From contig CAVRYZ010000008.1 of NCBI GenBank assembly GCA_963725685.1, forward strand, positions 398,709 through 462,708: DNA of 64,000 nucleotides. The letters run 5' to 3'. Numbering within the stretch: the first letter of the stretch is position 1; each line of letters starts with the position of its first letter. The position numbers were made by a program, and so were the translations under genes. This document shows positions 2,757 to 20,655 of the stretch, in pieces. The stretch comes from an uncultured Chloroflexia bacterium (GTDB lineage: Bacteria > Chloroflexota > Anaerolineae > Anaerolineales > UBA4823). The notes under the pieces are model-generated. The model saw only the letters and a program-made list of their open reading frames with translations, was not told the origin of the DNA and made no database searches.

Positions 2757-4070
2757 TCATCCTGCGTTGGCATCGACGCGGCTGGTTGAAAATATAAAGA
2801 TATTGTCCATGGCAAGATTAATCGCACCGATCACTCCGGCATCCGGTCCTATTTCCGAAAAAACAATCAGCAGATCACGGGTTGCCAAAGGCAGAGAACG
2901 GCGCAAGACGGTCTGGCGTATGGAGGATAGTAGCAGGTCACCCAGGTTACTTACTCCTCCGCCAATCACAATCATGCCCGGATTATAAAAATTCACCAGG
3001 CCAGCCAGTACATCACCAATAAATTGTCCACTTTCGCGAATAACCTCAATCGCCAATGCATCCCCTTCTCTTGAGGCATTGCCCACATCTTCCGCACGTA
3101 AGATGTTCCCGTTTCTTTCGTAATACTTCAACAGAATTGGGCTCTTTCCAGCCCGGGCTGCTTCCAATGAGCGTTCAGCGATTGCCGGACCAGCCGCGAT
3201 TGCTTCCAAACAACCTCTATTACCGCAATGACACAATGGACCGGTTTTATAAACTCCAATATGACCAATATCGCCTGCACAGCCACTGGCACCGCGGTAG
3301 ATTTTCCCGTCGCAGATAATTCCAGCACCAATTCCAGTTCCAATTTTTACAAATATCAGGTTATCCACACCTCTGCCAGCACCCTCACAAATTTCTCCCA
3401 GGGCCATTACATTAACATCATTGTCAACGACGACATTTGAAGTTGGGAACCATTGTTGTATGGTTTGGATAATTGGATACCGGTCCCATCCAGGCATGAT
3501 GGGCGGTGACACAAGGGTGCCCACGGTGAAATCTACCGGACCCGGGACACCAACGCCGATGCCCATTAGTGTGTCAGATCTTAAATTTTTTTGGTGGAGT
3601 AGGTTTTCAAGCAGAGAGCATACCCGCCCCAATATTCTAATCGGCCCATCTTTAACGGAGGCGGGCTCTGAAAATCGCACCAGCAGCTTGCCTGAAAAAT
3701 CCGCGATACCCAGATCTATGCTGGTGGCACCTATATCTACACCCGCCACCAGTCCAAAGTCACCGTTCAGGCTGAAGTTCTTGGAACGTCGTCCGCCAGT
3801 ATATTCTGTGACATTGTTTATTTCAATGATTTTTTTAGTGAGCAGAGAATCAATGCAACAGGTGACCTTGGTGCGTGAATAATCGGTGAAAGTGACCAGA
3901 TCCGATTTTGAGAACTCGCCATATTTTCGGATCAAATCGACCACTATTTTTTCTGAAGTGGTGATGAAGTATTGATTGGATGATGCCTCAACCTGGAACT
4001 GCCTTACCGGTTTTTCCAGTGAGGTGATGGTTCTAACTCTCTTGTTCAGCACTTCTCGGGCTATTCCCAT
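2757..4070 (-). CDS. ROK family transcriptional regulator (N-terminal wHTH plus ROK sugar-kinase-like domain)
   Basis: 437 aa. The N-terminal roughly 80 aa look like a winged HTH. ROK motifs are present: DIGATSIDLG, VGVPGPVD, and a Zn-binding HxGxxxxxxxCxCGxxGC-type segment (GHIGVYKTGPLCHCGNRGCLE). Confidence 0.85.
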   Translation of the reverse strand: MGIAREVLNKRVRTITSLEKPVRQFQVEASSNQYFITTSEKIVVDLIRKYGEFSKSDLVTFTDYSRTKVTCCIDSLLTKKIIEINNVTEYTGGRRSKNFSLNGDFGLVAGVDIGATSIDLGIADFSGKLLVRFSEPASVKDGPIRILGRVCSLLENLLHQKNLRSDTLMGIGVGVPGPVDFTVGTLVSPPIMPGWDRYPIIQTIQQWFPTSNVVVDNDVNVMALGEICEGAGRGVDNLIFVKIGTGIGAGIICDGKIYRGASGCAGDIGHIGVYKTGPLCHCGNRGCLEAIAAGPAIAERSLEAARAGKSPILLKYYERNGNILRAEDVGNASREGDALAIEVIRESGQFIGDVLAGLVNFYNPGMIVIGGGVSNLGDLLLSSIRQTVLRRSLPLATRDLLIVFSEIGPDAGVIGAINLAMDNIFIFSTSRVDANAG

Positions 4071-4230
4071 TTACAATATGGCTCGCTTTATAAATAGCAG
4101 GATAGTCATTATTGATCAACGCATACGAAAGGGCACCTGGTGCATGATACGGCGATCACTTGATCATTATGCCAGATCAAAATAATTTCTGGCCTGTGTA
4201 TTGAACCGAAGCATTCCAATGTGTAGAAGT

Positions 4231-4280
4231 GTTAATTACAGGATTACATATCATTATAGCCCGATGTACTCAGATGTCAA
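4231..4280 (-). promoter_or_regulatory. Near-consensus sigma70-type promoter (TTGACA-N16-TATAAT) with an adjacent operator-like motif, upstream of the ROK operon
   Basis: The reverse strand reads TTGACA (4280..4275), a 16-nt spacer, TATAAT (4258..4253), then gata-TGTAATCCTGTAATTAAC (4249..4231). The motif is shared with sites at 8065-8086, 8376-8395 and 37805-37816. Confidence 0.5.
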
Positions 4281-4389
4281 TATCTTTTGCGCAAATCAGT
4301 ACTACTTATGACATATTCGGTTATTAGTTGGCCTTATTTTATGGCACCCTGGCAATACAATATCCTTGAAGAGTATATCTTCCCTGCCA

Positions 4390-5721
4390 CTATAGGGTGA
4401 TACATTCCATCCCGAATACTTTTGATACCATTTCCAGCTCGTTCAAGTTATGACCATTGGTAATTATGTAGTGATGTGAAACCAGGTCATTGACCAACTT
4501 TTTCCCATTCGGCACATGAATGACAGCACCATTCAGACAATCCGAATTCTCAAACTGTGCATACTTCGGCAGCTCACCCTCCACAATCGACCAGCGATCA
4601 AAGGGTGGCATCAGTTTTACCAGGGTAATATCACCTTCCGCGATGCGGGCGTTAATTGCTGTCGCATTATCATCGACAATCGCCAGTACTTTCTTCTGCA
4701 GCTTCCATTCGGTTGAGAAGGATTGTGGAACCACACCAAAATATCCACAGTGGGCAGCCAGGATATAATTCTCTGGTGCTCCCTCAACCTCAGGGAAGTA
4801 TGGGATGTGTTCGTGTTTTAATGCCGCGTATCCCATCTGGAATGGATACAGGTTGGTCATCATGAAGGGGACTCCGATGGTTTTCCCTATCAGGACTTTG
4901 GTGAGCATTGAAACCAGGTCAGCTTCGCAGCCCCAAACAAGCCGTTGATCTTCGTATAGAAAATTCCATGCCAGGCACGGAGTTGTATCCGAGAACATGG
5001 ATTCATTCAGACAATTGATCCCAGCTGCGATGATGTTAGGGTCCTGGTCCAGGTCTCTCTTGACCGCCATGTAGACCTTTACCGCGCTTAATATTGCTCG
5101 TTTTGTCATTTTTCCGATCGGTGTATTGGCTTTGCGTTGCTCCCACACCTTTTGCGCTTCTTCATCCGAAATCGCACTTGCATCCTGTCCCAACTTTTTG
5201 AAGCTCTTCTTTATAACCGTAACTCCATATTTTTTCTCAATGGCCTCAATACATTCCGGTTCCCACCAGTAAAATCGTTTGAAGATATCATCCTGTTTTC
5301 CGGTGCCGCTGGCAGGGTTATCCTGGTAGGCCAAAATTTTTGATTGTTTCAACTGGCGTTTTAATGCAAAAGCCCGGCAGACCTGTTTGGTTTTTTCGAG
5401 ATCTGTGGGGCCAATGACTTTCACACCTTTGGCAGTCAGGTAGCTGTTTATTTCCCAATCCCACATCGAGACAGTACCAAATTCGGAGGTCACTATCAAG
5501 AGTGGCTGGGGCAGCTTCTTGATTTTATCCAGCAGGCGATAGGCTTGCCCCAGCATCTCCGGGAAGATCACCCCGTCTGCATCGGGCAGTTTTTCTCCCA
5601 AAAAGACTGGTTCTAATATCTCAGCTTCCTCCGCGAGAAGCGCGTGCAGTTTTATTAATTGGGTTGAGAATGCAGGATCATCGACAGTTTTAAAGTAAAT
5701 TGGAACAAGTTTTGCTTTCAT
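4390..5721 (-). CDS. Hypothetical protein, possibly a FucI/AraA-like sugar isomerase
   Basis: 443-aa ORF in a sugar-catabolic context. The GCEADLVSM and HCGYFG segments are reminiscent of fucose/arabinose isomerase-like proteins. The functional call is weak. Confidence 0.4.
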   Translation of the reverse strand: MKAKLVPIYFKTVDDPAFSTQLIKLHALLAEEAEILEPVFLGEKLPDADGVIFPEMLGQAYRLLDKIKKLPQPLLIVTSEFGTVSMWDWEINSYLTAKGVKVIGPTDLEKTKQVCRAFALKRQLKQSKILAYQDNPASGTGKQDDIFKRFYWWEPECIEAIEKKYGVTVIKKSFKKLGQDASAISDEEAQKVWEQRKANTPIGKMTKRAILSAVKVYMAVKRDLDQDPNIIAAGINCLNESMFSDTTPCLAWNFLYEDQRLVWGCEADLVSMLTKVLIGKTIGVPFMMTNLYPFQMGYAALKHEHIPYFPEVEGAPENYILAAHCGYFGVVPQSFSTEWKLQKKVLAIVDDNATAINARIAEGDITLVKLMPPFDRWSIVEGELPKYAQFENSDCLNGAVIHVPNGKKLVNDLVSHHYIITNGHNLNELEMVSKVFGMECITL

Positions 5722-5773
5722 AATAATCTCCTTCTAGCTCTTCAATAACTGATCACCATCCGTAGGTCAAACA

Positions 5774-5811
5774 AAGGAGGAACAGGGGTCTAAAGCAACC
5801 TGTCCCTCCTT
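5774..5811 (-). terminator. Rho-independent terminator after the Gfo/Idh/MocA gene
   Basis: The reverse strand reads AAGGAGGGACAGG-ttgctttagac-CCTGTTCCTCCTT followed by TGTTTG. The stem is 13 bp with one mismatch. Confidence 0.5.
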
Positions 5812-5850
5812 ATAAAATCACCAGTAATATCTTGATTGCCAATCCAAGCT

Positions 5851-7032
5851 TTACTTGACATCGGAGACGGTTACTTTTCGACCAGTGGTTGCAGATTGGA
5901 TTGCTGCTTCCAAAACCTGCATAACTTTCATTCCATCGTAGAAGTTCGGTGAAATCTTGGTGCCCTTTTCAATCGCCGTCAGGAAATCTACGATGGCATG
6001 CGAGAACGCGTGCTCATAGCCGATAATGTGTCCGGGTGGCCACCAGGCTGCCACGTATGGATGCGTGGAATTCGTCACCAGGATTGTCCGAAATCCCTGC
6101 TCGTCCGCAGCATCCGCCAGGTTCAAATATTGAAGCTCGTTCATCCGCTCAAGATTGAACACCAGGCTGCCCTTACTGCCGTAAATTTCAAAATAGTTAT
6201 AATTTTTACGCCCGCTGGCAAACCGGCTGGCTTCAAAGGATCCCAGGGCACCATTTTCAAACTCAGCCAGCATGAAGGCGGCATCGTCCACAGTGACCTT
6301 GGCCATATCTGTTGCCCCGGTTCCAGCTTTGAAAGTACCGGCCCCTATGCCGGGTAACGGTCTTTCGGTGATGAATGTCTTCATCATTGCCGTCACCGCC
6401 GTGATTTCCCCCACCAGGTAACGCCCGAGATCAACACTATGAGAATTCAAATCATAATGAGGGCCAGCACCCGCGAATTTCTTTTGTAAGTGCCAGGTCA
6501 GGGGGAATTTCGGGTCGGTGATCCAGTCTTGCAGGTAAGTTCCACGCCAATGATAGATCGTTCCGATCTTTCCTTCATCGATCAATTGCCTGGCAAATGT
6601 AATCGCCGGAGCCCGCCGGTAGTTGTGGTTCAGGTAATGCACCACTCCGGCTTTCTCTGCAGCCTCATACATTTCTTTGGCACCTGAATACGATAAGGTG
6701 ATGGGTTTTTCGCAGAAGATATGCTTCCCATTTTGTGCGGCTGCAATCGCAATCTCTTGGTGTAACCAGGTGGGTGTGCAGATATCAATCACATCGACGT
6801 CCTTACGCTCAACCACCTTGTGCCAATCCGTCTCGATTGCCTCCCACCCCCAGTTGTCAGCAAAAGTAGTGGTACATTCCACTTCTGTGTCACAAGCTAC
6901 CTTCATCACCGGTGTAATCCCAAGCTGAAAAAACTTGGACGTTCTACCCCAGGCGTTGCTGTGGGCTTTACCCATAAAGCCGGTTCCAATGATCGCAACA
7001 TTTACTTTTTTCAAGGCTTCCTCTCCTCTCAT
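5851..7032 (-). CDS. Gfo/Idh/MocA family oxidoreductase
   Basis: 393 aa. N-terminal Rossmann motif VAIIGTGFMGKAH, the family-typical EKP motif (FCEKPI), and a C-terminal alpha/beta domain. Confidence 0.85.
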   Translation of the reverse strand: MRGEEALKKVNVAIIGTGFMGKAHSNAWGRTSKFFQLGITPVMKVACDTEVECTTTFADNWGWEAIETDWHKVVERKDVDVIDICTPTWLHQEIAIAAAQNGKHIFCEKPITLSYSGAKEMYEAAEKAGVVHYLNHNYRRAPAITFARQLIDEGKIGTIYHWRGTYLQDWITDPKFPLTWHLQKKFAGAGPHYDLNSHSVDLGRYLVGEITAVTAMMKTFITERPLPGIGAGTFKAGTGATDMAKVTVDDAAFMLAEFENGALGSFEASRFASGRKNYNYFEIYGSKGSLVFNLERMNELQYLNLADAADEQGFRTILVTNSTHPYVAAWWPPGHIIGYEHAFSHAIVDFLTAIEKGTKISPNFYDGMKVMQVLEAAIQSATTGRKVTVSDVK

Positions 7033-7079
7033 TATCTCTTCCCAATTGTGTGCTTATTACACTCGTGTGGAGAGTGTAT

Positions 7080-7943
7080 TTAATTCAATTCGGAGGCAAT
7101 TTTTTTCAATGCCTTGACGCTCAATGCAACTGCTTCATCCTCCCGACCGGTCCAATCCGTGTGCGGGTGGTCAATTTCTACTGCCAGGAAGCCTTTAAAG
7201 TTGGCTTTGTGAAGCATTTGGGCTAAAGCCTGGTTATTGATCAGGCCCATCCCAACCGGTACACCGGCGAAGAAGTGCCAATCGGTTGGTCGAGCGTTTT
7301 TATCTGGCATCAGGTCTTTAACATGGGTAGCAAAAGTATACGGGGCAAGCTTTTCCATCCCTTTCACGGGGTCATCGAGCAGACGAAGAAAATTACCCGT
7401 GTCAAAATTCAGACCAAAGTATTCTGAATCAACCATCTCCAGCAATTGTAAGATTTCGTCACTGGTGAAGTCGATGTGGTTCTCCACCGCCATCTTAACA
7501 CCATGGTCTTTGGCAATTGGAACCGCTTTTTTGAACATTTTTACCAGAGCTTCCACCTGGGGTCCGTGCGGTTCGTGCCTGAACATCAAGCTGCTTCCTA
7601 CCACGCGCATCACATCCGCACCAATCGCGACGGCATTCGGGATGCCAGCCACCATTTCATCGTAGGCTGTCCAATTCTGGCCGCGTTCAAGACCATCCGG
7701 GTGACCCCAGGCGTATACACGATCCATTTTATACTCGTCCAATTGTGCTTTCAGGTCTTTGAACCAGGCTTTGTCGATTTTCGCAGGGAAGAAGCACGAT
7801 TCAAGCGATACCCCATCTACATTCAATTCTTTGGCGCGTTTGAGAAAATCCTGCATGGTCATATTTTTTGCAGGGGGTTCCTGATCTGGATATACTTCAC
7901 CGAAGAACCGATGGTAACAATAACTATCAATTCCGACTTTCAT
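7080..7943 (-). CDS. Sugar phosphate isomerase/epimerase (xylose isomerase-like TIM barrel)
   Basis: 287 aa with VENH, NFDTGNF and LAVEIDH segments. An AGGAGG-like Shine-Dalgarno (CAGGAGGC) precedes ATG 7943. Confidence 0.8.
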   Translation of the reverse strand: MKVGIDSYCYHRFFGEVYPDQEPPAKNMTMQDFLKRAKELNVDGVSLESCFFPAKIDKAWFKDLKAQLDEYKMDRVYAWGHPDGLERGQNWTAYDEMVAGIPNAVAIGADVMRVVGSSLMFRHEPHGPQVEALVKMFKKAVPIAKDHGVKMAVENHIDFTSDEILQLLEMVDSEYFGLNFDTGNFLRLLDDPVKGMEKLAPYTFATHVKDLMPDKNARPTDWHFFAGVPVGMGLINNQALAQMLHKANFKGFLAVEIDHPHTDWTGREDEAVALSVKALKKIASELN

Positions 7944-8064
7944 TTTATGCCTCCTGAGATTAGATTGGTGAATTTACTTGTATTTGAGCCCAGTTTTTGC
8001 CTCTAAGCCATCCATTCGCGAGGAATCGCATTGACTTTATTCTATTAAGCATTGGAGATGAGAA

Positions 8065-8115
8065 CCTGTCATTACAGGATAACATTATTATAACGATTAA
8101 TTTATCATAGTTCAA
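8065..8115 (-). promoter_or_regulatory. Sigma70-type promoter (TTGAAC-N17-TATAAT) with an operator-like motif, for the 7943..5851 operon
   Basis: The reverse strand reads TTGAAC (8115..8110), a 17-nt spacer, TATAAT (8092..8087), then aa-TGTTATCCTGTAATGACAGG (to 8065). Confidence 0.5.
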
Positions 8116-8343
8116 GACATAGACGCATAATTGCTGTGTTTATTTCAACAATATTGGAATTTATTTTAAAGGGCACCATCCATGTCAGATGATAGTAAGG
8201 GAGAATGGTTCACCAACCGATAAAGCGATTTTTCGCGAAATACTGGCATTCGTGCCAACCATAAATGAACATACTTGCATGAAAATAATTATAATGCCTA
8301 TCATTTTCCACTTCCAGCAATATGAGTTCTTACAATTATTCTA

Positions 8344-8395
8344 TTGACAGGTCTGGGATTTCTTTCTATAATAAGTTGTAATCACAGGATTACAA
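8344..8395 (+). promoter_or_regulatory. Consensus sigma70 promoter (TTGACA-N17-TATAAT) followed by a perfect 8-4-8 palindromic operator
   Basis: TTGACA lies at 8344-8349 and TATAAT at 8367-8372. The palindrome TTGTAATC-ACAG-GATTACAA spans 8376-8395, over the expected transcription start and 23 nt before the GntR start codon. Confidence 0.6.
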
Positions 8396-8417
8396 CAAAT
8401 CTTATTGATCTCAAGGG

Positions 8418-9251
8418 ATGGATCCCATGAAAGAATCGATCAATTTTGAGAGTCATATCCCATACTACCTTCAGCTTATAGATATTTTGAAGGAAAAGGT
8501 TCAACAAGCAGAATGGGCCCCAGGCGATCAAATTCCGGGTGAACAGGATCTCTGCGAGCATTATCAGGTCAGCCGTACTGTTGTCAGGCAGGCATTGCGC
8601 GAGCTGGAATATGAAGGTGTGATTACCCGCCAAAAAGGCAAAGGTACTTTCATCTCTCTGCCGAAAATCAGTGAAGGGCTGGTGCAAAAGCTGACTGGTT
8701 TTTACCAGGATATGGTGGAACGTGGTCTGAAACCGGGCTCAAAAGTGCTTCACCAAAATGTAAGCCCAGCTTCCGAGAAAGTAGCCCGTTTTCTCAGCAT
8801 CAAACCGGGTGAAAGGGTGATTGATATTCAGCGTTTGAGATATATCAATGACGAGCCTATTCAACTGGTCACCACCTATATTCCATTTGAGATCTGCCCA
8901 GGCCTATCCGAAGTTGATTTGACCAATCGCTCACTCTATGAATATCTGGAAAAGGAATGTGGCATTTTTATTGCCAAAGGACAGCGTTACATCGAAGCTG
9001 TGCTGGCAAATGAGCACGAAGCCGCATTGCTCGGTATTGACCGGGGAGCCCCATTATTGATGCTGGATAGTGTCAGCTTTTCAGAGGATGGGCAGCCGAT
9101 CGAATACTATCATGCCCTCCACCGCGGCGACCGGTCGCGCTTTGAAGTCGAGCTGGTCAGGTTGCGCGAATCGAACTCGAAGTCCGTTGACCTTGCGGGC
9201 AGCTTATCTGCTGCCTCAAAGGTGCGCTCAGCAAATGGGGTTTCGAAATAA
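8418..9251 (+). CDS. GntR family transcriptional regulator (HutC/FarR subfamily, UTRA effector domain)
   Basis: 277 aa. The N-terminal GntR wHTH is GDQIPGEQDLCEHYQVSRTVVRQALRELEYEGVITRQKGKGTFI. The C-terminal region is UTRA-like (IQRLRYINDEPIQL). Confidence 0.9.
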   Translation: MDPMKESINFESHIPYYLQLIDILKEKVQQAEWAPGDQIPGEQDLCEHYQVSRTVVRQALRELEYEGVITRQKGKGTFISLPKISEGLVQKLTGFYQDMVERGLKPGSKVLHQNVSPASEKVARFLSIKPGERVIDIQRLRYINDEPIQLVTTYIPFEICPGLSEVDLTNRSLYEYLEKECGIFIAKGQRYIEAVLANEHEAALLGIDRGAPLLMLDSVSFSEDGQPIEYYHALHRGDRSRFEVELVRLRESNSKSVDLAGSLSAASKVRSANGVSK

Positions 9252-9302: not shown

Positions 9303-10838
9303 ATGCAAAAGAAATATCTGATAGGCGTTGATCTAGGAACCAGCGGTACCAAAGCTGCGCTCTATCAGATTGACGGGAAGCTTATTTCCGAAGCCTCCGT
9401 TGAGGTCCCACTTTTTTATCCCACGCCGGGTGTTGTGGAGCAGGAAAATGAAGATTTCTACACTTCTGCTGCCCAGACTGTGCGGAAATGTGTGGAATCC
9501 AGCGGTGTCGACCCACGCGCCATCGCCGCAATTGCGTTTGATTCACAAATGGCTGGCGTTGGATTACTGGGAGAAGATTTCAAACCTGTCGCCAGGTTTG
9601 ACTCCTGGCTGGATATGCGCTGCCAACCTTATATCGAGTGGATGGATAAGGAAGCTGGTGATCGCATCACGCAGCTCACAGGCTGCCCACCCACCTGTGA
9701 CCATGGCCCCAAGATGCTGTGGTGGAAGCACGAACAGCCTGAGATATACCAGCAGACAGCTAAATTTGTGATGCCCGGAGGCTATGTGGCTGGTAGGATC
9801 GCCGGTTTACCATTCGATCAGGCATTCATCGACCATACTTACATCCATTTTTCAGGGTTTTCTGATGCCCAATCGGAAGTATGGTCCGCTGAATTATGCG
9901 ATCGATTCGGGTTGGATCAGGAAAAACTCCCCCGCATTATCGATTCCTGCACCATTATCGGTGAAGTACGGGAGGATTCTGCCAGTGAATTTGGTCTGGT
10001 TTCAGGAACTTTGATTGCAGCTGGTGCGGGAGATACTGCCGCAAATGCCTTGGGTGCTGGCATTGTGAACCCTGGAATGCTTTTTGATGTGGCAGGTACG
10101 GCGGCCGTCCTGGCTGGGTGCACCAATAAATTTGTGGCCGATACCAAAAATCGTGCCTTGATCACTATGCGTTCGGTCATCCATGGATTATGGAATCCGC
10201 TGGCATATATCGGGGGTGGTGGGATCGCATTACGCTGGTTCCGTGATCAGTTCTATAATCGGGCGCGCGGGCAAAGCCTGCCCATCACGGATGAAGACCT
10301 GTATCCGCATATGATCGCCCAGATTGAAACGGTGGCACCAGGCTCCGAAGGCTTGTTCTTCTCACCCCATCTTGGAGGTCGCATCTGCCCATCCAGCCCC
10401 GACATGCGTGGTGCATGGCTAGGAGTGTCGTGGTCACACACCCAGGCTCATTTTACCCGCTCGATTTTGGAAAGCATTGCCTACGAATATGCATATTATC
10501 TAAAAATACTGAAGGAAGCATTACCCGAATCAGTTTTGGTGGAAGCGCGCGTGGTTGGTGGCGGGGCACGCAGTTCAGTATGGAACCAGATCAAGGCTGA
10601 CGTGCTCAATGTGCCCTATCAAAGACTAAAAGGTAACGAGTTCGGTGCCTGGGGTGCGGCGATGATTGCTGGTAAAGCAGCTGGTTTGATCGATGACCTG
10701 GCTTCCCACGCTGAGCGATCTGCCGTATTGAGTGGCCTACCTTTCCACCCATCGCCAGAAAAGCACACCCTTTATGTCCCCCTGATTGAGAAATATATTG
10801 TACTGGAAGAAGCCTTGAACCAGTTTTATCGGTTGTAA
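9303..10838 (+). CDS. FGGY family carbohydrate kinase (xylulokinase-like)
   Basis: 511 aa. It has the N-terminal GVDLGTSGTKA motif and the C-terminal FGGY segment VVGGGARSSVWNQIKADVL. Confidence 0.85.
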   Translation: MQKKYLIGVDLGTSGTKAALYQIDGKLISEASVEVPLFYPTPGVVEQENEDFYTSAAQTVRKCVESSGVDPRAIAAIAFDSQMAGVGLLGEDFKPVARFDSWLDMRCQPYIEWMDKEAGDRITQLTGCPPTCDHGPKMLWWKHEQPEIYQQTAKFVMPGGYVAGRIAGLPFDQAFIDHTYIHFSGFSDAQSEVWSAELCDRFGLDQEKLPRIIDSCTIIGEVREDSASEFGLVSGTLIAAGAGDTAANALGAGIVNPGMLFDVAGTAAVLAGCTNKFVADTKNRALITMRSVIHGLWNPLAYIGGGGIALRWFRDQFYNRARGQSLPITDEDLYPHMIAQIETVAPGSEGLFFSPHLGGRICPSSPDMRGAWLGVSWSHTQAHFTRSILESIAYEYAYYLKILKEALPESVLVEARVVGGGARSSVWNQIKADVLNVPYQRLKGNEFGAWGAAMIAGKAAGLIDDLASHAERSAVLSGLPFHPSPEKHTLYVPLIEKYIVLEEALNQFYRL

Positions 10839-10885
10839 GCCTGAAGTTATCGTCTGGAGAAATACCTTGTTATGAGGAATTATTG

Positions 10886-11923
10886 ATGAAAAAACATATC
10901 CGAATTTGCATGATCGGTGGCGGAAGAGTCGGGAAAAACCACTCACGCGCCCTCACCCGTTACGTCCCTGGCGGGAAGATTGTTGCACTGGTTGAAACGA
11001 TGGAAGCGGTACGTCAGGAAACTGCGAATGAATTTGGGATCGAGAACCAGTTCGATTCGCTTGAGGCGGCGCTTGGTAAAGTTGATTTTGATGCTGTAGT
11101 CATTACCACCCCTACCCCCACCCACTTGCCGATTGCAAAGCTGGCAGCCGAAAATAAGAAGCATGTATTTCTTGAAAAACCGATGGCTCTATCCCTGGCA
11201 GAATGCGATGCAATCCTCAAGGTGATTGAGCAGAACGCGGTTCTTTTACAATTGGGTTTTATGCGTCGTTTTGATCCCGAGTTCGTCGCGGCTGCACAGC
11301 GCATCCAGGCGGGTGAGATTGGCCTGCCCATGATGATCAAAACCAATACTCACGGTCCAGGTTTACCGCCTGCATGGGCGCGCGATTTACGCACGTCGAA
11401 TGGTATGCTGGCGGAAGTGAACAGCCATGATTGGGATACCCTACGCTGGTTTATGAGCTCTAATCTAGAAAGAGTGTATACCGAAGTCGCGAACTTTAAA
11501 GGAGCTGCCAACCATGTCGATACTCCCAATTTCTATGATAATGTCCTGGTCAATGTAAAATTTGAGAATGGTGGCTTGGGCATGCTTTCAGGGGTCTGCC
11601 CCTGCGGTTATGGCTATGATGCCCGCGTAGAGATTATTGGCGAAAAAGGGATCATGCAAATCGGTGAGCTCAAAGGCCAATCGATCGTCGTCTGTACCGA
11701 CCGTGATCACGGGCTGGTGACCCCAATTTTTAGAACCTGGCCCGAACGATTCAAGTGGGCATATATCAATGAATTGGAACACTTTGTGGACTGCATCCTG
11801 ACTGAGACCCCACCCCGTGCTGGCGGAATTGACGGTCGTTGGGCGGTCGCGGGTGTTATAGCTGGGACAAAATCCTTTTTAGAAGGGCGTCCAGTTACCT
11901 TGAAAGAAATCATCAATGCCTGA
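10886..11923 (+). CDS. Gfo/Idh/MocA family oxidoreductase (inositol 2-dehydrogenase-like)
   Basis: Motifs are MIGGGRVGKNH (Rossmann) and FLEKPMA. ATG 10886 follows GAGGAA. The track start at 10883 is a TTG one codon upstream. Confidence 0.85.
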   Translation: MKKHIRICMIGGGRVGKNHSRALTRYVPGGKIVALVETMEAVRQETANEFGIENQFDSLEAALGKVDFDAVVITTPTPTHLPIAKLAAENKKHVFLEKPMALSLAECDAILKVIEQNAVLLQLGFMRRFDPEFVAAAQRIQAGEIGLPMMIKTNTHGPGLPPAWARDLRTSNGMLAEVNSHDWDTLRWFMSSNLERVYTEVANFKGAANHVDTPNFYDNVLVNVKFENGGLGMLSGVCPCGYGYDARVEIIGEKGIMQIGELKGQSIVVCTDRDHGLVTPIFRTWPERFKWAYINELEHFVDCILTETPPRAGGIDGRWAVAGVIAGTKSFLEGRPVTLKEIINA

Positions 11924-11945
11924 GGTACGTGGAGAGCGAGGCGAA

Positions 11946-12989
11946 ATGCTTGCTGCTGTATATCATGGCCCGAACGACTTACGCGTTGAAGATGTGCCAG
12001 TTCCTGAAATCGGAAAAGGTGAAATACTGGTCAAGGTGTTGAGTGCCAGTATATGCGGGACGGATTTGCGTATCTATCATGGAGATCACCGCATGTACCC
12101 GCCAGGGACGGTGCGTATTCCCGGGCACGAAGTGGTTGGCACCATTGAAAGTATAGGCGCACAGGTCAGTGGCTATACCATCGGACAGCGAGTATTTTGT
12201 GCACCCAACACCGGCTGCGGTCACTGCGAGCAGTGTGTGACCGGCAACAATAATCTGTGCGCCAATTATGACGCCATTGGGGTGACCTCCGATGGAGGTT
12301 TTGCGGAATATGTTCGGATTCCAGCCAACTCGGTCCAACAAGGCAATGTGATCCCTGTCAGCGAAAGTGTCGACCCGGCCGTGGCTGCCCTGGTAGAACC
12401 TTTTGCCTGTGTGCTCAGGGGGCAAAATGCCTTGCACATCAAACCCGGTGACGTTGTGTTGATCATGGGAGCTGGACCGATAGGGGTGATGCACCTCAAA
12501 CTTGCCAGGGCCCAAGGTGCAGGTCGCATCATCGTTAGCGAACTCACACCCGACCGTGCCATCCAGGCAAAGCGCATGGGTGCCCAGCGCGTGGTTGACC
12601 CTGGTTCAGAAGATATAAAAGCAATATTGGCTTCGGAAACGCATGGGCATGGCGCGGACGTGATCATTATTGCCGCACCAGTACATAAAGCGCAGGAGAG
12701 TGCCCTCGAGCTTGCCGCGATTGGTGGGAGGATTAACTTTTTCGGTGCGCTTCCGAAAGACAGACCTATTATCAGTTTTAATTCCAACCTGGTGCATTAC
12801 AAGGAGCTGGTAGTCACGGGTACAACCGCTTGCAGCACGGCTGATTGCTGGCAGGCGACCCGAATCATTGATTCTGGCCTGGTTGACCTATCGGATATCA
12901 TCAGCCAGCGGTTTCCATTAAAAGATGCTTTGAAAGCCTTCGCAGTCGCCGAAGACGGCAAATCCTTAAAAATTGTTCTGGAACCCTGA
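11946..12989 (+). CDS. Zinc-binding alcohol/polyol dehydrogenase (MDR family, sorbitol/threonine dehydrogenase-like)
   Basis: Motifs are CGTDLRIYHG, GHEVVG, the structural Zn Cys cluster CGHCEQCVTGNNNLC, and GAGPIG. I prefer ATG 11946 (GGAGAGCGAGG upstream). The ATG at 11916 is an alternative. Confidence 0.85.
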   Translation: MLAAVYHGPNDLRVEDVPVPEIGKGEILVKVLSASICGTDLRIYHGDHRMYPPGTVRIPGHEVVGTIESIGAQVSGYTIGQRVFCAPNTGCGHCEQCVTGNNNLCANYDAIGVTSDGGFAEYVRIPANSVQQGNVIPVSESVDPAVAALVEPFACVLRGQNALHIKPGDVVLIMGAGPIGVMHLKLARAQGAGRIIVSELTPDRAIQAKRMGAQRVVDPGSEDIKAILASETHGHGADVIIIAAPVHKAQESALELAAIGGRINFFGALPKDRPIISFNSNLVHYKELVVTGTTACSTADCWQATRIIDSGLVDLSDIISQRFPLKDALKAFAVAEDGKSLKIVLEP

Positions 12990-12994
12990 TCCCC

Positions 12995-13957
12995 ATGTCC
13001 TCTTCTTCCACATCCATGCTGCCACGACCGGCGATGACTGTTCAAGGGCCAGTCCCGTATGAACAATTGGGTATTACGGATGCGCATAATCACCTCTGGA
13101 TAGAAGCCGTCCCTGGAGGAAGAGAAGGCAATCCGGTTCTGAACCAGTATGACCTTATCCTGCGGGAGCTGGTCGAGTATCGCAGGAATGGTGGAGGTTC
13201 GGTGTTGGATTGTCAACCGGGTGGGTGTGGTCGCGATGGCAATAAGCTATTGCAGCTCTCAAAGGCGTCCAGGGTTAATCTCATCGCCTGTACAGGTTTC
13301 CACCTAAAAAAATACTACCCCCCCGATTACTGGTTATGGGAAGCAAGTGCTCAAAAAGTCAGTGATACCTTGACTTCCGAGCTGGAGCAAGGGGTAGATG
13401 AGACACTCAACACCCACATTTCTGCCAGGGCTGGGTTTATCAAGATCGCCCTCGAAGATGCCTGGACTGACTGTCCGCTTGCTGCCCTAGAAGGTGCTGC
13501 TTCAGCGGCGTACAACACCAAAGCAATCATCGAAATTCACACTGAAAAAGGTTCCCTGGCTGAAAAAGCCTGTGTTTATTTTATCGATCATTCGGTGTTG
13601 CCCCAACAGCTGGTGCTGTGCCACATTGACAAGAGGCCAGACCTGAGTCTGCATAAAGCACTTGCTGACCTTGGCGTGTTGCTCGAGTATGACACCTTTT
13701 ATCGACCGAAATATGATCCGGAAACTAACCTCTGGCCGTTGATTGATCGAATGGTCAGCGAAGGATTATCCAACCGGGTTGCCTTTGCCACCGATATGGC
13801 TGCGTCTTCTCTTTATCACAATATCGGCGGCGGACCAGGCCTGTCAAGTTTGCCTGGTGAAATCCAGCGAAGATTAGCCGAAAAAGGATACCCGGACACT
13901 GCCCGTAAGCAGATGCTGGGAGAGAATATCGCCCGCCGACTAGCCGGAATAGATTAA
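12995..13957 (+). CDS. Phosphotriesterase-family (PTE/PHP, amidohydrolase superfamily) protein, possible sugar(-phosphate) lactonase
   Basis: All family metal-ligand positions are recognisable: HNH (TDAHNHLW), a Lys in FIKIAL, a His in EIHTEKG, a His in LCHID and an Asp in ATDMA. The start could instead be M14 (13034). Confidence 0.8.
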   Translation: MSSSSTSMLPRPAMTVQGPVPYEQLGITDAHNHLWIEAVPGGREGNPVLNQYDLILRELVEYRRNGGGSVLDCQPGGCGRDGNKLLQLSKASRVNLIACTGFHLKKYYPPDYWLWEASAQKVSDTLTSELEQGVDETLNTHISARAGFIKIALEDAWTDCPLAALEGAASAAYNTKAIIEIHTEKGSLAEKACVYFIDHSVLPQQLVLCHIDKRPDLSLHKALADLGVLLEYDTFYRPKYDPETNLWPLIDRMVSEGLSNRVAFATDMAASSLYHNIGGGPGLSSLPGEIQRRLAEKGYPDTARKQMLGENIARRLAGID

Positions 13958-13976
13958 TTCCAATCAGGAGAATGAG

Positions 13977-14549
13977 ATGGTTGACTTACCCTTTGCATTC
14001 ACGCTTCCCATGCCGCAGGTGATTCCATCCAAGGTAGATAATCACATTGAAAGGCGCCTCTCGGCATTGCGCGGCCAATTTTTAGACCAGGAGACTTATT
14101 ACAAAATGCTCACGGATGGCGACAGGTTGATCTATGAAGTCTATGAAATCAAGCGCCCTGAAGTGGAAGGTGAGATTTTGATGGGAATCTCGATCGTCCA
14201 CCCGGGTAAGGTGGGCAATGAATTCTTTATGACCAAGGGACATTTTCACTCCATCCTCGAAACCGCGGAAGTCTATTATTGCTTACGCGGTGAGGGCTTT
14301 ATGGTGATGGAAACACCCGAAGGAGATACTTCTGTTGTAGCGCTCTCCCCGGGGAAAGTCTTGTATGTGCCGCCTCGCTGGGCTCACAGGTCAGTATGCA
14401 CCTCGCGCCAGGAAGACCTGGTGACATTCTTTGCTTACCCAGGGAATGCGGGCCATGACTATGGCACGATTGAACGCCAGGGTTTTCGCAAGCTGGTGGT
14501 TGAAGGCGCAAATGGTCCTGAGATTATTGATAACCCGCGCTGCCAGTGA
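13977..14549 (+). CDS. Cupin-type glucose-6-phosphate isomerase-like protein (cPGI family)
   Basis: 190 aa. PGKVGNEFFMTKGHFH...EVY and VPPRWAHRSV match my recollection of the cPGI signatures TxxxPxxxGxExxxTxGHxH..ExY and PPxxxHxxx(N). Confidence 0.7.
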   Translation: MVDLPFAFTLPMPQVIPSKVDNHIERRLSALRGQFLDQETYYKMLTDGDRLIYEVYEIKRPEVEGEILMGISIVHPGKVGNEFFMTKGHFHSILETAEVYYCLRGEGFMVMETPEGDTSVVALSPGKVLYVPPRWAHRSVCTSRQEDLVTFFAYPGNAGHDYGTIERQGFRKLVVEGANGPEIIDNPRCQ

Positions 14550-14561
14550 TCCGGAGTATAT

Positions 14562-15527
14562 ATGAAGCTTAAAGAATGCCGTTTACTGGTCACACCAACA
14601 TCCTATGGAAAAAACGATTCCCGCCTCAAGACGGAATTGGAGGCGCTGGTGGGAGAAGTGATCTACAACCCAACCGGCAAGCCGCTCTCCTCTACCGAGG
14701 TTGCCAGCTTATTGCCGGGGATCGATGGATATATTGCCGGGCTGGATGGTATCGATGCGATGGCTTTAAGCGCAGCTGACCGACTTAAGGTGATTTCGCG
14801 CTATGGGGTGGGGATTGATAATGTAGACCTGGTTGCGGCGCGCGAAAAAGGAATCGTGGTGACTAATACACCAGGAGCGAATTCTGTCTCGGTTGCAGAG
14901 CTTGCCCTGGGATTGATTCTGGCACTAGCGCGCCAGATCCCCGAAGCGGTTGAAGCGGTTCACCAGGGTAAATGGCCTCGCTATGCCGGGATCAGCCTGG
15001 AAGGTAAGACGATCGGCATTCTCGGTCTGGGCGCGATCGGTAAACAACTTGCCCGCCGTCTATCTGGATTTGATTGCAAGCTCCTGGCGTTCGATCCATT
15101 CGCAGATGCAAGTTTTGCGGATGCCAATCATGTTGAGCTCGCCAGCATGGAAGTGGTGATCCAGCGTTCCGATTTTATCAGCCTGCACCTGCCCCTGTTG
15201 CCAGAGACGCGCAACCTGGTGAATGAGAGCTTCTTGAGCAGGATGAAGAAAGGCTCTTTCCTGGTAAATACATCACGCGGTGAGGTGGTGGATGAATCAG
15301 CTCTGCTATCAGCATTACAGAGCGGCCATCTCAAAGGGGCGGGTCTGGATGCATTCACCATCGAGCCTCCTGATCCGAAGAACCCACTTTTGGGATTACC
15401 ACAGGTGATTGCCACGCCCCATCTTGGTGCGCAAACCGATGGCGCCACCAGCAATATGGGCTGGTTCGCCATGCGTGATTGTCTGGCAGTGTTAAAGAAT
15501 GAAATTCCAATGTATAGAGTCGTTTAA
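14562..15527 (+). CDS. D-isomer-specific 2-hydroxyacid dehydrogenase (PGDH/GyaR-like)
   Basis: 321 aa with the NAD motif GILGLGAIGKQLARR and the catalytic-region segments NTSRGEVVDE and TPHLGA. Confidence 0.85.
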   Translation: MKLKECRLLVTPTSYGKNDSRLKTELEALVGEVIYNPTGKPLSSTEVASLLPGIDGYIAGLDGIDAMALSAADRLKVISRYGVGIDNVDLVAAREKGIVVTNTPGANSVSVAELALGLILALARQIPEAVEAVHQGKWPRYAGISLEGKTIGILGLGAIGKQLARRLSGFDCKLLAFDPFADASFADANHVELASMEVVIQRSDFISLHLPLLPETRNLVNESFLSRMKKGSFLVNTSRGEVVDESALLSALQSGHLKGAGLDAFTIEPPDPKNPLLGLPQVIATPHLGAQTDGATSNMGWFAMRDCLAVLKNEIPMYRVV

Positions 15528-15559
15528 GCAGCATTTATCACAATATTATTGGAGGAGTT

Positions 15560-16204
15560 ATGCTAAAAGCAGAAGTATTGGAAAAAGTAAAGCAGCTGGG
15601 TTTCCTGGCGGTGATCCGCGGTCCGTCTCCAGAATTAACCGTCAAAATGGTTGAAGCCCTTGTGGCGGGTGGGGTATTGGGCATCGAGATTACTTACAGC
15701 ACACCGAATGCAGAGGATGTGGTCCGAACACTCACCAAGATGTTCGGGGACACGATTGTGCTCGGTATGGGAACCCTGACTAAGCCCGAGCAAGCGCTGA
15801 CTGCCAGGGCTGCTGGTGCAAGCTTCCTGGTTTCCCCGGTTTGCGAGCTGAACCTTGTAAAAGCCATGGTCGAGAGTGGCTTATTGTGCATGGCAGGGGC
15901 ATTTACTCCTACCGAGGTTTTCCAGGCATATAGCATGGGCGTCGATGTGGTCAAGATTTTCCCAGGCTCCCTGGGTGGACCAGCTTACATCAAAGCCCTT
16001 AGAGGACCCTTCCCGTATATCCCCATGATGCCCACTGGTGGGGTGAGTGCCGGGAATGTGGCAGATTGGTTTACCGCCGGGGTTGTGGCGGTAGGTGCCG
16101 GAAGTGAGCTTTGCCCACCCCAACTGGCAAAAGATGGGAAATTTGATGAGATCTCAAAACGCGTGGCTGAGTTCGTGCAGATTGTTAAATCCGCCAGAGG
16201 GTAA
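15560..16204 (+). CDS. eda: 2-dehydro-3-deoxyphosphogluconate / 4-hydroxy-2-oxoglutarate aldolase
   Basis: 214 aa. It shows the family pattern GIEITYSTP, VKIFPG (Schiff-base Lys region) and PTGGVS. Confidence 0.8.
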   Translation: MLKAEVLEKVKQLGFLAVIRGPSPELTVKMVEALVAGGVLGIEITYSTPNAEDVVRTLTKMFGDTIVLGMGTLTKPEQALTARAAGASFLVSPVCELNLVKAMVESGLLCMAGAFTPTEVFQAYSMGVDVVKIFPGSLGGPAYIKALRGPFPYIPMMPTGGVSAGNVADWFTAGVVAVGAGSELCPPQLAKDGKFDEISKRVAEFVQIVKSARG

Positions 16205-16216
16205 ACCGAGGACATA

Positions 16217-17188
16217 ATGACAGCCATCACCAAACAGGGAAACTATCCGGTTGTAAAAAAATCAGTTCCCACATTTTATTTTATTGGTGTGACCACCAGC
16301 AAGTCTTCGATTATGAAGGTTTTCCCCTTGTGGATGAAAATCCTGGGACGGGAAGAGGTGGTGATGGAGGGCGTGGATTGCAAAATCCATGATGACGCCG
16401 AGGTCTACCGGAGAGCGGTTGCGCAAATCAAATATGATCCCCTTTCATTAGGCTCGCTCGTAACCACGCACAAGATTGACCTGCTCAACGCCGCTCGAGA
16501 TATGTTTGAATATCTTGATCCATATGCGCTGATCACCGGTGAAGTATCCAGTATCTCGAAATTGGATGGCCGTTTGGAAGGGCACGCCAAGGATCCGATC
16601 ACTTCAGGCTCAAGCCTGGATGCGATCATCGAACCTGGTTATTTTGCCAGGACGCATGCTGAGGTACTGTGTTTTGGTGCGGGAGGCTCGGGTGTTGCCA
16701 CCCTGCTGCACCTGATCAACAATAAAGATAGGGGCGACCGACCGAGTAAATTCACATTCGTGAACCGTTCTCAAGGGCGGTTGGAGCACGCAAAAGAAAT
16801 GGTGGGAAGTTTAAAAACCGATATCGCCATCGATTACATCTGCAATTCAGACCCCGCGATTAACGATAAAATAATGGAGAAATTCCCGCCGCATAGTATC
16901 ATCATCAATGCCACCGGCATGGGTAAGGATACCCCTGGCTCACCCATCACCTGGCAGGGGAAATTCCCCGAGAACAGCATTGCCTGGGAATTCAACTACC
17001 GGGGTGAATTAGATTTCATGCACCAGTCCCTGGCCCAGGTAGAGAGCCGTCATGTTAAAGTTGAGGATGGATGGCTGTATTTTGTGCATGGTTGGACGCA
17101 GGTGGTTGCTCAAGTCTTACATTTTGACCTCACCCCAACCTTGTTCGACCAGCTGAATCAAGCTGCCTCATCGGTCAGAGGAAAGTAG
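16217..17188 (+). CDS. Shikimate/quinate dehydrogenase-family protein (substrate unknown)
   Basis: 323 aa. Segments are AroE-like: LVTTHKID (compare NVTxPxK), GAGGSGVA (NAD(P) loop) and INATGMG. The call is family level only. Confidence 0.5.
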   Translation: MTAITKQGNYPVVKKSVPTFYFIGVTTSKSSIMKVFPLWMKILGREEVVMEGVDCKIHDDAEVYRRAVAQIKYDPLSLGSLVTTHKIDLLNAARDMFEYLDPYALITGEVSSISKLDGRLEGHAKDPITSGSSLDAIIEPGYFARTHAEVLCFGAGGSGVATLLHLINNKDRGDRPSKFTFVNRSQGRLEHAKEMVGSLKTDIAIDYICNSDPAINDKIMEKFPPHSIIINATGMGKDTPGSPITWQGKFPENSIAWEFNYRGELDFMHQSLAQVESRHVKVEDGWLYFVHGWTQVVAQVLHFDLTPTLFDQLNQAASSVRGK

Positions 17189-17277
17189 TGTCTCATTATG
17201 ATGAAATTCGGGAATCTTTGGTGCATGAATTCAGTAACAGCAACCAGGATCCCCGCACAGGTTGAAAGGTTGATTGG

Positions 17278-17985
17278 ATGTTCCTGACAGCTAAAGACAT
17301 TGCAAAGATGATTGACCTGTCTTGTGTGCGTACGGTATCCAGCAAAGCAGATATCGATGAAATGGTGCAGGCGGCACACAAGTATGGTTTCGGTCACGTC
17401 TCGGTTCTGCAATGCTTTATTCCATACACCAAACAGCAGCTGCAGAGGGCTCCAGATGTGCTCCTGGTGGGTAATGTGAGTTTCCCTTCCGGCTCAGATT
17501 CCACCACGCTTAAAATTGCCCAGGCGAAGGAAATGCTTGCGGAAGGTTGTGACGAAATCGACATGGTCATGAATATCGGTAAGCTGCGTTCAGGCGAGCT
17601 CTCTGAGGTGGAAGAAGATGTGCGGGCGGTTATCGAGACTGTACGGCCGACCCCGGTGAAGGTGATCATCGAGATCATGGTTTTGACCACGGAGGAGACT
17701 GTCCAAGCATGCGGTGTATGCCTTCGGGCTGGTGCGGCTTTCATAAAAACAGGCACCGGTTGGGCTGATCGGGGTACCACCCTGGAGGATGTACGCTTGA
17801 TTAAATCGTTGGTGGGTGACCATATCCAGATCAAAGCCTCGGGTGGCATCCGCAGCCTGGATATGCTGGTGAAAATGCACACCGCTGGTGCAACGCGCTT
17901 TGGTGTGAATCTTAAAAGTGGGATCAAGATTGTGGAGGAGTGCCTGTCTCAAGGATCAATGGTCGAGGTAGGATCAGCATCGTAA
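17278..17985 (+). CDS. deoC: Deoxyribose-phosphate aldolase family protein
   Basis: 235 aa with DeoC-like segments IDLSCVR, VKVIIE, FIKTGTGW (Schiff-base Lys) and IKASGGIR. Confidence 0.75.
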   Translation: MFLTAKDIAKMIDLSCVRTVSSKADIDEMVQAAHKYGFGHVSVLQCFIPYTKQQLQRAPDVLLVGNVSFPSGSDSTTLKIAQAKEMLAEGCDEIDMVMNIGKLRSGELSEVEEDVRAVIETVRPTPVKVIIEIMVLTTEETVQACGVCLRAGAAFIKTGTGWADRGTTLEDVRLIKSLVGDHIQIKASGGIRSLDMLVKMHTAGATRFGVNLKSGIKIVEECLSQGSMVEVGSAS

Positions 17986-17999
17986 ATCATGGATATCTT

Positions 18000-19538: not shown

Positions 19539-19653
19539 CCCTGTTCAAATAGAATTATTAAGCTATTGGAGGAACACAAACCAACAAGCCAGCCAGCATT
19601 TCTGAATATCAAAGCCATAATTCGAAAATTATCTCTCGAAAGGAAAATATATT

Positions 19654-20625
19654 ATGAAAATAGGACTTTTCACGGCGACGTTTTTGGATATGCACATTGA
19701 AGAAGTATTCAAGATGGCCTCGGGTTTAGGATACGAAGCGGTAGAGATGCCTGCATTTGCAAATAACCCGCACCTTGACATCGAAAAGATTGTCAAAGGC
19801 AAGAATGCGGCAACGTTGAAAAAGCTGGTTAAGTCGTACGGGTTGATCATCTCCGCATTAGCCAACCATCCGGAAGGGCAGATTGTGCTTGGACCCTATG
19901 GAAAAGACACGGACGCGATTTTCAAAGGTACCAAGGAAGAGAAGATCAAGTTTGGCACCGAACGCATGATCAAGACCGCTCAGGCAGCCAATGCCCTTGA
20001 GGTGCCTGTGGTAACCGGGTTCATTGGCTGCGAGAATTTTGGCCGTTTCTTCCCCTGGCCTTATTCGAAAGGTTGGGCGGATATGGAAGTAGAATTTGTA
20101 GAGCGCTGGAGCAAAATCCTGGATAGATTTGGCGAGTATGGAGTTAAATTCGCCCATGAACCGCACCCCAATGAGCTGGTCTACAATGTGGAAACCGCCC
20201 TGCGTGCAGTTGAGCTGATGGGAGGTCGTAAGGAGTTCGGTTTCAACTTCGACCCTGCCAACTTGATTTACCTGGGCATTGATGTGGAGAACTTTATCGA
20301 CGCCCTTGCCGGGCGAATCTTACACGTGCACGCCAAAGACGGTGAAGTGGTGGTTCACAACGTCCGCCGTTCAGGTGTGATCCCGCAAGGTGACTGGCAG
20401 CGCCTTGGACGTGGTTTCCGCTTTAGAATCCCCGGCTGGGGTTCTGTGCCCTGGAAGAAAGTGATCACCGAGCTTTCGATGATTGGGTACAATTACGTCA
20501 TGTCGTACGAGCATGAAGATGTCACCATGAGCCGTCACGACGGCATCACCAAGACGATTGCTTATCTGAAACCATTGATGATTGAGAACCCTTACGAAGG
20601 TCGCAACGACGTTTTATTCCAATAA
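19654..20625 (+). CDS. Sugar phosphate isomerase/epimerase (xylose isomerase-like TIM barrel)
   Basis: 323 aa with HEPHPNE, NFDPANL, HVHAKDG and SYEHED segments. Confidence 0.8.
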   Translation: MKIGLFTATFLDMHIEEVFKMASGLGYEAVEMPAFANNPHLDIEKIVKGKNAATLKKLVKSYGLIISALANHPEGQIVLGPYGKDTDAIFKGTKEEKIKFGTERMIKTAQAANALEVPVVTGFIGCENFGRFFPWPYSKGWADMEVEFVERWSKILDRFGEYGVKFAHEPHPNELVYNVETALRAVELMGGRKEFGFNFDPANLIYLGIDVENFIDALAGRILHVHAKDGEVVVHNVRRSGVIPQGDWQRLGRGFRFRIPGWGSVPWKKVITELSMIGYNYVMSYEHEDVTMSRHDGITKTIAYLKPLMIENPYEGRNDVLFQ

Positions 20626-20655
20626 TCTTTTACAACTGATCAAGGAGTAATTTCT

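Follow-up and report, generated by a model that had tools for sequence, protein, structure and literature searches.

A shared, conserved element downstream of three promoters marks a probable HutC-type GntR sugar regulon in an uncultured Anaerolineae bacterium

The stretch analysed here ("the window", 64,000 nucleotides) belongs to contig CAVRYZ010000008.1 of assembly GCA_963725685.1, a metagenome-assembled genome (MAG) of an uncultured member of the Anaerolineae that comprises 3.31 Mb in eight contigs and is 78.6% complete. Near its start, the window holds a sugar catabolic locus with a gene for a GntR-type regulator of the HutC subfamily at the head of a long operon, a divergent operon for a TIM-barrel protein and a Gfo/Idh/MocA-type dehydrogenase, and an operon headed by a ROK-family regulator. 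The promoters of all three carry the same sequence element directly downstream of the −10 box. We consider it likely that these elements are operators of the local HutC-subfamily GntR protein, which would act as an autoregulated repressor at four promoters, the fourth lying outside the window, until a sugar-derived effector releases it. The three promoters and their sites are the following.

4280-4253, minus strand: promoter of the ROK operon, with −35 TTGACA at 4280-4275, a 16-nt spacer and −10 TATAAT at 4258-4253.
4248-4230, minus strand: operator site 1, TGTAATCCTGTAATTAACA, in the ROK-operon promoter, 3' of the −10 box after the 4-nt gap GATA.
8115-8087, minus strand: promoter of the TIM-barrel/Gfo operon, with −35 TTGAAC at 8115-8110, a 17-nt spacer and −10 TATAAT at 8092-8087.
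8084-8067, minus strand: operator site 2, TGTTATCCTGTAATGACA, in the promoter of the TIM-barrel/Gfo operon, 3' of the −10 box after the 2-nt gap AA.
8344-8372, plus strand: promoter of the GntR operon, with −35 TTGACA at 8344-8349, a 17-nt spacer and −10 TATAAT at 8367-8372.
8376-8395, plus strand: operator site 3, TTGTAATCACAGGATTACAA, in the GntR promoter, 3' of the −10 box after the 3-nt gap AAG.

A preliminary description of the window had reported these three sequences, and both a re-reading of the sequence and a consensus promoter scan of 3900-8600 confirmed that each is where it was said to be, beginning 2–4 nt after the −10 box of a near-consensus promoter. The ROK and GntR promoters match the consensus hexamers at 12 of 12 positions and the TIM-barrel/Gfo promoter at 10 of 12; all three are the top promoter-like sites on the relevant strand, the last one tied with two other sites of 10/12. 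Their −35 and −10 hexamers, 16–17 nt apart and thus within the 16–18 nt of σ70-type promoters, are fixed across genomes, and the spacers vary. The three sites share the consensus TGTwATCCTGTnATkACA of about 18 bp, and the recurrence exceeds chance: the shared 14-mer TGTAATCCTGTAAT has four matches in the window at up to two mismatches where 0.31 are expected, and none of 100 shuffled sequences reached four. A nested core palindrome, CCTGTAATGACAGG, lies within the site 2 region (8065-8078, minus strand).

Two details of the preliminary description need amendment. It had taken the sites as one element read in the direction of transcription, and the shared motif is indeed there; site 3, however, aligns best as its reverse complement, TGTAATCCTGTGATTACA, the earlier alignment having covered its first hexamer only. 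It had also described site 3 as a perfect 8-4-8 palindrome, which is the case in this genome and in its closest relative, but not in others. Elsewhere, any of the four nucleotides is found at base 8 of the site (C8383) and the conserved form is TTGTAAT-n-ACAGG-ATTACAA, and the 8-4-8 symmetry is thus partly accidental because this position varies freely. The reversed orientation has a simple explanation in a fully symmetric 26-bp palindrome, TGTAAT-CC-TGTAA-TTACA-GG-ATTACA, which occurs as TATAATCCTGTAATTACAGGATTACA in a relative (G022), overlapping the −10 box there, and also in a fourth site described below. Sites 1 and 2 correspond to the left 18 bp of this palindrome and site 3 to the right 18 bp, hence its opposite orientation.

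To place the motif in the context of the whole genome, we used a position weight matrix (PWM) of 22 columns derived from 81 distinct sites, all taken from other genomes. Site 2 scored 32.1 bits, site 3 30.0 bits and site 1 24.2 bits. Only two further locations stood out, C1:736776-736801 with 22.9 and 21.9 bits on its two strands and C4:92582-92601 with 22.0 bits; everything else in the 3.31-Mb genome scored 14.6 bits or less. The first of these is listed here as site 4.

C1:736776-736801, outside the window: operator site 4, TTTAATCCTGTAACGACAGGATAACA, a near-perfect 26-bp palindrome.

Site 4 lies about 160 nt upstream of genes for a CUT2-type ATP-binding cassette (ABC) transporter, encoding a lipoprotein sugar-binding protein, a fused ABC ATPase-permease and a permease, and it is kept upstream of the 88–90% identical transporter orthologues in the relatives G011 and G015. 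It is farther from its putative −10 box than are sites 1–3. Site 4 is a genuine fourth operator, and the C1 transporter thereby enlarges the regulon beyond that of the preliminary description. The 22-bit match on C4, in contrast, is a false positive, its sequence not being kept in the relatives' copies of the surrounding RNA element. That element (C4:92529-92715, minus strand) is a T-box-leader-like RNA downstream of a tRNA gene, with a GGGTGGTACCGCGG box and a terminator. Its score against RF00230 is 56 bits (E = 2.9e-11), under the 93-bit gathering score, and it is present in most genomes of the genus.

The specificity depends on the centre of the motif. A pattern made of the half-sites only, TGTAAT-N6-ATTACA with up to two mismatches, was rejected as non-specific: it has 112 matches in the genome, mostly in coding DNA, from which it follows that the conserved centre CCTGT is required. 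A reversed-pattern control gave no match in either 41 or 151 genomes. Scatter of the motif through coding DNA, which the preliminary description had named as grounds for doubt, was seen neither in the PWM scan nor in a mapping of 80 loci, where all matches at up to two mismatches were intergenic, with none inside a mapped gene. With four exceptions, they lay no more than 400 bp 5' of the start of a mapped gene (GntR 119, TIM2 75, ROK 15), and most of the loci that hold the TIM2 orthologue have a match upstream of it.

Orthologous promoters show strong conservation, the lack of which the preliminary description had likewise named as grounds for doubt, and about 70 related genomes keep the site. 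GntR orthologues of 75–92% identity occur in 11 of the 21 genus genomes, and the 14-kb regions of ten relatives each contain exactly three copies of ACAGGATWACA, at syntenic positions. In promoter alignments, sites 1 and 2 are invariant in the 11 genus genomes, and around sites 1–3 the −35, −10 and operator blocks are unchanged while the 16–17-nt spacers and the 5' untranslated regions (5'UTRs) drift. The information content reflects this, at 1.78 bits per position for the operator as against 0.27 in the promoter spacer, 0.40 in the 5'UTR and 0.19 upstream. Beyond the genus, TGTAAT-N6-AT[TA]A[CT]A directly follows the −10 box of GntR in 66 of 79 Anaerolineae loci (orthologues 56–92% identical), 30 of 42 promoters have a 4-nt gap between −10 and operator, and the block CTATTGACA...TATAAT of the GntR promoter is kept across about 60 genomes. 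Among the 66 loci is that of the cultured Flexilinea flocculi TC1, which has the GntR promoter TTGACA-17-TAAAAT-T-TGTAATTACAGGATTATA.

An element that, at sites 1–3, always abuts the −10 box might instead be part of the promoter or of the initial transcribed sequence, or might act in the RNA as a 5'UTR hairpin, with no protein binding it. A terminator scan does flag the site 3 palindrome, which can fold into a 9-bp stem. Sites 1 and 2, however, have the same sequence and no equivalent hairpin; the stems are sequence-invariant, with no compensatory changes; and a transcript with its first base some 7 nt past the −10 box would start within the left arm, which would truncate the RNA stem. We reject the hairpin at site 3 on these grounds. 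As for a promoter element, site 3 runs the other way from sites 1 and 2 with respect to transcription, which means that RNA polymerase does not read the element directionally, and site 4 stands at a greater distance from its putative −10 box. Taken together, a role that involves no protein operator is extremely unlikely.

The protein that most likely binds the sites is the regulator encoded next to site 3.

8418-9251, plus strand: gene for a HutC-subfamily GntR regulator with a winged helix-turn-helix (wHTH, PF00392) and a UTRA domain (PF07702).

PF00392 covers residues 17-79 (E = 4.9e-20) and PF07702 residues 101-239 (E = 4.6e-47). The true start codon is probably ATG 8427, judging from the alignment of relatives: ATG 8418 is not conserved (it is ACG in G009 and G011), and ATG 8427 is retained in most of the 11 genus genomes, with GTG in two, and has upstream of it a GGGA(T/C)GG that looks like a ribosome-binding site. 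The nearest solved structures are those of NagR/YvoA (E = 1.3e-44) and DasR (E = 8.8e-43), both with full-length alignments, and the NCBIfam equivalogs of HutC type are all under their cut-offs, the best reaching 152 bits against a cut-off of 269.

The motif and the gene occur together. The strict pattern TGTWATCCTGTNATKA is found in 13 of 13 genomes whose GntR orthologue is at least 57% identical (this genome and 12 relatives) and in 1 of 28 that lack one (Fisher p = 8e-10); it is missing from the nine genus genomes without the locus and from every one of 16 genomes outside the family, and occurs once in G018, described below. Across the order, in a sample of 151 genomes, TGTAATNACAGGATTACA is present in 7 of 7 genomes whose orthologue is at least 65% identical versus 1 of 144 others (p = 3e-11), the one being a 460-contig assembly.

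Comparison with NagR (YvoA) of Bacillus subtilis (PDB 4WWC/4U0V; PMC4333415) is in line with GntR as the binder. Like the protein here, NagR is a HutC-subfamily regulator of wHTH and UTRA domains; it has an autoregulated local sugar regulon, such as is proposed for this protein, and the core CCTGT-N4-ACAGG has the same geometry as the NagR dre site GTGGT-N4-ACCAC: half-sites of 4–5 bp are 6 nt apart, G-4 and T-3 are kept in CCTGTAATTACAGG, and natural NagR sites are imperfect palindromes as well. This core takes the form CCTGT-AATT/AATG/AACG-ACAGG in site 2, site 4 and the relatives G018 and G022, and TGTAATnACA in site 3; the GT-N4-AC palindrome with half-sites about 6 nt apart that characterizes HutC operators is therefore found here, with site 1 off by one extra base. 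NagR contacts its operator through Arg38 at G-5, Arg48 at G-4 and Gly69 of the wing at G-7 (PMC4333415). Arg48 and Gly69 are conserved as R53 and G74, whereas the position of Arg38 is taken by Gln43, alongside a change from G to T at −5 of the operator. The two systems also differ in that the operator is CCTGTAATTACAGG here and GTGGTCTAGACCAC in NagR, in an additional hexamer, TGTwAT, which is conserved 8 bp away from the core and brings the operator to about 18–26 bp overall, and in the target genes, which are not nag genes. DasR of Streptomyces coelicolor (PDB 4ZS8; PMC4918961), from the same subfamily, likewise binds a palindromic operator of GT-N4-AC type and has a phosphosugar as its effector. 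DasR acts globally and at many sites, however, whereas here there are four sites per genome, all on one pathway, with another motif and other targets. Because the equivalog scores are below the cut-offs and the motif and target genes differ, the protein is not an orthologue of NagR or DasR. The reasoning is that by which local sugar regulons of LacI- and GntR-family regulators have been reconstructed in the manner of RegPrecise (PMC3840689, PMC4052901): the regulator adjoins its targets, is autoregulated and has a palindromic motif that is kept in orthologous promoters. A literature search turned up no published description of the motif TGTAATTACA or its regulon, nor any relevant regulon reconstruction for Anaerolineae or Chloroflexi.

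The adjacent GntR gene could in principle be merely linked to sites that another factor binds, either a GntR paralogue encoded elsewhere or a protein similar to CRP or NtcA that reads TGTA...TACA. TGTA-N10-TACA does bear a loose likeness to half-sites of the CRP family. Its 10 nt between TGTA and TACA, however, fit neither NtcA (N8) nor CRP (TGTGA-N6-TCACA), and activators of the CRP type do not usually sit downstream of the −10 box; given the wrong spacing and the locus-bound distribution, we reject this possibility. A paralogue has more in its favour, since in some genomes a 44% identical copy with the same recognition helix is tied to the same motif. No such copy of 41–44% identity was detected here, where the 78.6% complete assembly contains a single match at E ≤ 1e-40. 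Just four conserved sites per genome, each attached to one pathway, and the absence of the motif from the nine genus genomes without the locus further argue against any outside factor, which we consider improbable.

The relative G018 is such a case. It is without the orthologous locus and has one copy of the motif, TATAAT-N10-TGTAATCCTGTAATTACAGG, ahead of an operon (about 3818-7883 of the region C5:121000-135000) for a cupin phosphoglucose isomerase (PGI), a 2-hydroxyacid dehydrogenase, a KDPG aldolase, a protein of unknown function, a GntR paralogue and an ABC ATPase, with no ROK gene nearby. The paralogue is 44% identical and has the identical recognition helix VSRTVVRQAL. By sequence, this looks like a paralogous regulon using the same operator.

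The preliminary description had put forward both the GntR/HutC and the ROK regulator as candidate binders. The former is favoured by the co-occurrence and by the HutC-type GT-N4-AC core; the latter is not, as the motif persists where a ROK orthologue is lacking. Two features are relevant to the ROK regulator.

2757-4070, minus strand: gene for a ROK-family regulator (Pfam ROK; NagC/Mlc-like), full length including the N-terminal region.
4301-4328, read on the minus strand: imperfect palindrome ACTAATAAC-N-GTCATAAGTAGT upstream of the −35 box of ROK; ACTTATGAC-N7-GTCATAAGT in relatives.

Control of the three operons, its own included, by the ROK regulator would be in keeping with a protein that is full length (NCBIfam NagC/Mlc alignments span residues 42-420), with the position of site 1 in its own promoter and with the constant co-occurrence of ROK and the sites within the genus. 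Seven genomes, F. flocculi TC1 among them, nevertheless keep the operator in the GntR promoter although their best ROK match has at most 35% identity, and about half of these matches are of kinase length, without the N-terminal region. In G018, too, the motif precedes an operon that has no ROK gene close by. A ROK gene is lacking within 6 kb in many of the loci that contain GntR and the operator, and the GT-N4-AC core is a signature of the GntR family. The palindrome at 4301-4328, moreover, is a better candidate for ROK autoregulation. Some 20 nt separate it from the −35 box, on the upstream side; it is unrelated to the shared motif and is conserved in ROK promoters of the genus and of more distant genomes. 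At up to two mismatches it has ten matches genome-wide, of which the ROK copy is the only one in a regulator promoter and the only one that looks meaningful. We infer that this palindrome may serve the ROK regulator as an operator for autoregulation, and consider it very unlikely that the same regulator binds the shared motif.

The genes downstream of the operators give an idea of the pathway under control.

From 4070 and past the window start, minus strand: ROK operon, with the genes for the ROK regulator, a xylose-isomerase-like TIM barrel and an ABC ATPase, followed beyond the window start by two permeases, a binding protein and three TIM barrels.
4390-7943, minus strand: the divergent TIM-barrel/Gfo operon of three genes, given in the next three lines.
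7080-7943, minus strand: xylose-isomerase-like TIM barrel (Pfam).
5851-7032, minus strand: levoglucosan-dehydrogenase-like (LgdA-like) enzyme of the Gfo/Idh/MocA family (NF052479, 405.6 bits against a cut-off of 650, full-length alignment).
4390-5721, minus strand: 443-residue protein with an AraA/FucI isomerase fold (AlphaFold2 model and Foldseek).
9303-21714, plus strand: twelve catabolic genes downstream of GntR (Pfam, NCBIfam), in the order FGGY kinase, IolG-like dehydrogenase, zinc-dependent alcohol dehydrogenase (Zn-ADH), PTE-type lactonase-like protein, cupin PGI-like protein, 2-hydroxyacid dehydrogenase, KDPG-type aldolase, unknown protein, DeoC-like aldolase, FGGY kinase, TIM barrel and Zn-ADH.
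12995-13957, plus strand: the PTE-family protein among these twelve, with phospho-furanose lactonase NF045706 as its best match (108 bits, cut-off 630).

The twelve catabolic genes are presumably co-transcribed with GntR, and the order GntR-FGGY-Gfo-ADH-PTE-cupin-2-hydroxyacid dehydrogenase is kept in most of the 80 loci. The 443-residue protein is 62–94% identical across Anaerolineae and has no sequence match in Pfam, NCBIfam or the PDB. Its AlphaFold2 model (pLDDT 82, pTM 0.86) matches L-arabinose and L-fucose isomerases in Foldseek with E = 9e-21 and a TM-score of 0.68 at 12–15% identity; the protein is, according to this model, a predicted sequence-orphan sugar isomerase, co-transcribed with the LgdA-like dehydrogenase. 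The matches of the Gfo/Idh/MocA and PTE-family proteins hint at a route through 3-keto-sugars or phospho-lactones.

In the mechanism that we propose, a GntR dimer, or possibly two, would bind the ~18-bp TGTwAT-CCTGTn-ATkACA in the absence of inducer. Each of sites 1–3 begins 2–4 nt after the −10 box and therefore would cover the region of the presumed transcription start, and bound GntR would either exclude RNA polymerase or block formation of the open complex. The promoters so repressed would be that of GntR's own 13-gene catabolic operon, which amounts to autoregulation, and that of the divergent operon for the TIM barrel, the LgdA-like dehydrogenase and the AraA-fold isomerase, as well as those of the ROK, ABC-transporter and TIM-barrel operon and of the second sugar ABC transporter, of CUT2 type, on C1. 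The effector would be derived from a sugar, probably as a phosphorylated intermediate produced by the first FGGY kinase; its binding to the UTRA domain would move the DNA-binding domains out of position, as happens in NagR and DasR, and so lift the repression of the regulon. Among RNA-seq and metatranscriptome runs, which were sought for their transcription starts, none contains the locus; only DNA metagenomes hold it. The proposal of the preliminary description that repressor operators unite the divergent operons in one regulon is supported by the intergenic distribution of the motif and the conservation of the promoters.

Several observations sit less easily with GntR binding as a simple dimer, or with GntR as the binder at all. 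One genome in 460 contigs, G072, has the motif and no detectable GntR orthologue, and within its genus (G086:C2, G156:C22) about 11.7 kb separate the exact motif from the GntR orthologue, which it does not directly precede. Since the GntR gene and the sites form one locus that is gained and lost as a unit, their co-occurrence is in part linkage. Residue 43 (Q, P, M or L), the equivalent of NagR Arg38, shows no consistent pattern of co-variation with the central operator bases among the compared orthologues, and we do not use it as evidence. The operator is longer than the NagR-type 14-mer, having the extra conserved hexamer (TGTwAT or ATTACA) 8 bp from the core, and its centre is asymmetric yet conserved. 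Site 1 in the genus has one added base in its right half, TAACA versus TACA, and in distant ROK promoters it is kept as a direct repeat, TGTAAT-[GC]A-TGTAAT-TAC. The outer hexamer, the extra base of site 1 and the direct-repeat form are not obviously explained by a single dimer.

Alternatively, the operator might be an array of three to four TGTAAT hexamers in an 8-bp register, with the 26-bp palindrome as its full form, marking an undescribed, Anaerolineae-wide regulon of sugar or phospho-lactone catabolism, instead of a simple HutC dimer site. MngR/FarR, a HutC-subfamily regulator of Escherichia coli, is reported to bind tandem repeats of TGTATTA type; these direct, TGTA-rich repeats resemble TGTAAT-NN-TGTAAT here, but differ in period and sequence. 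We regard such an array as possible, though on balance doubtful. If true, it would be an unusual way for this family to bind DNA, either in a "1.5-site" mode or by cooperation of two dimers.

The regulon proposed here would be an ordinary but clearly defined local sugar regulon: repression by a HutC-type regulator overlapping the promoter is textbook, so that the general interest is modest. Its value lies with the Anaerolineae, a mostly uncultured class that is abundant in soils, sediments and digesters and has been almost unstudied with respect to gene regulation. The canonical TTGACA-17-TATAAT promoter architecture is conserved in this class. With about four sites per genome, the operator can serve as a regulon marker, and by tying scattered genes such as those of the C1 ABC transporter to the conserved 13-gene pathway it helps to assign their function. 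The cultured F. flocculi TC1, which has the same GntR gene and operator, offers a system in which the regulon can be tested.

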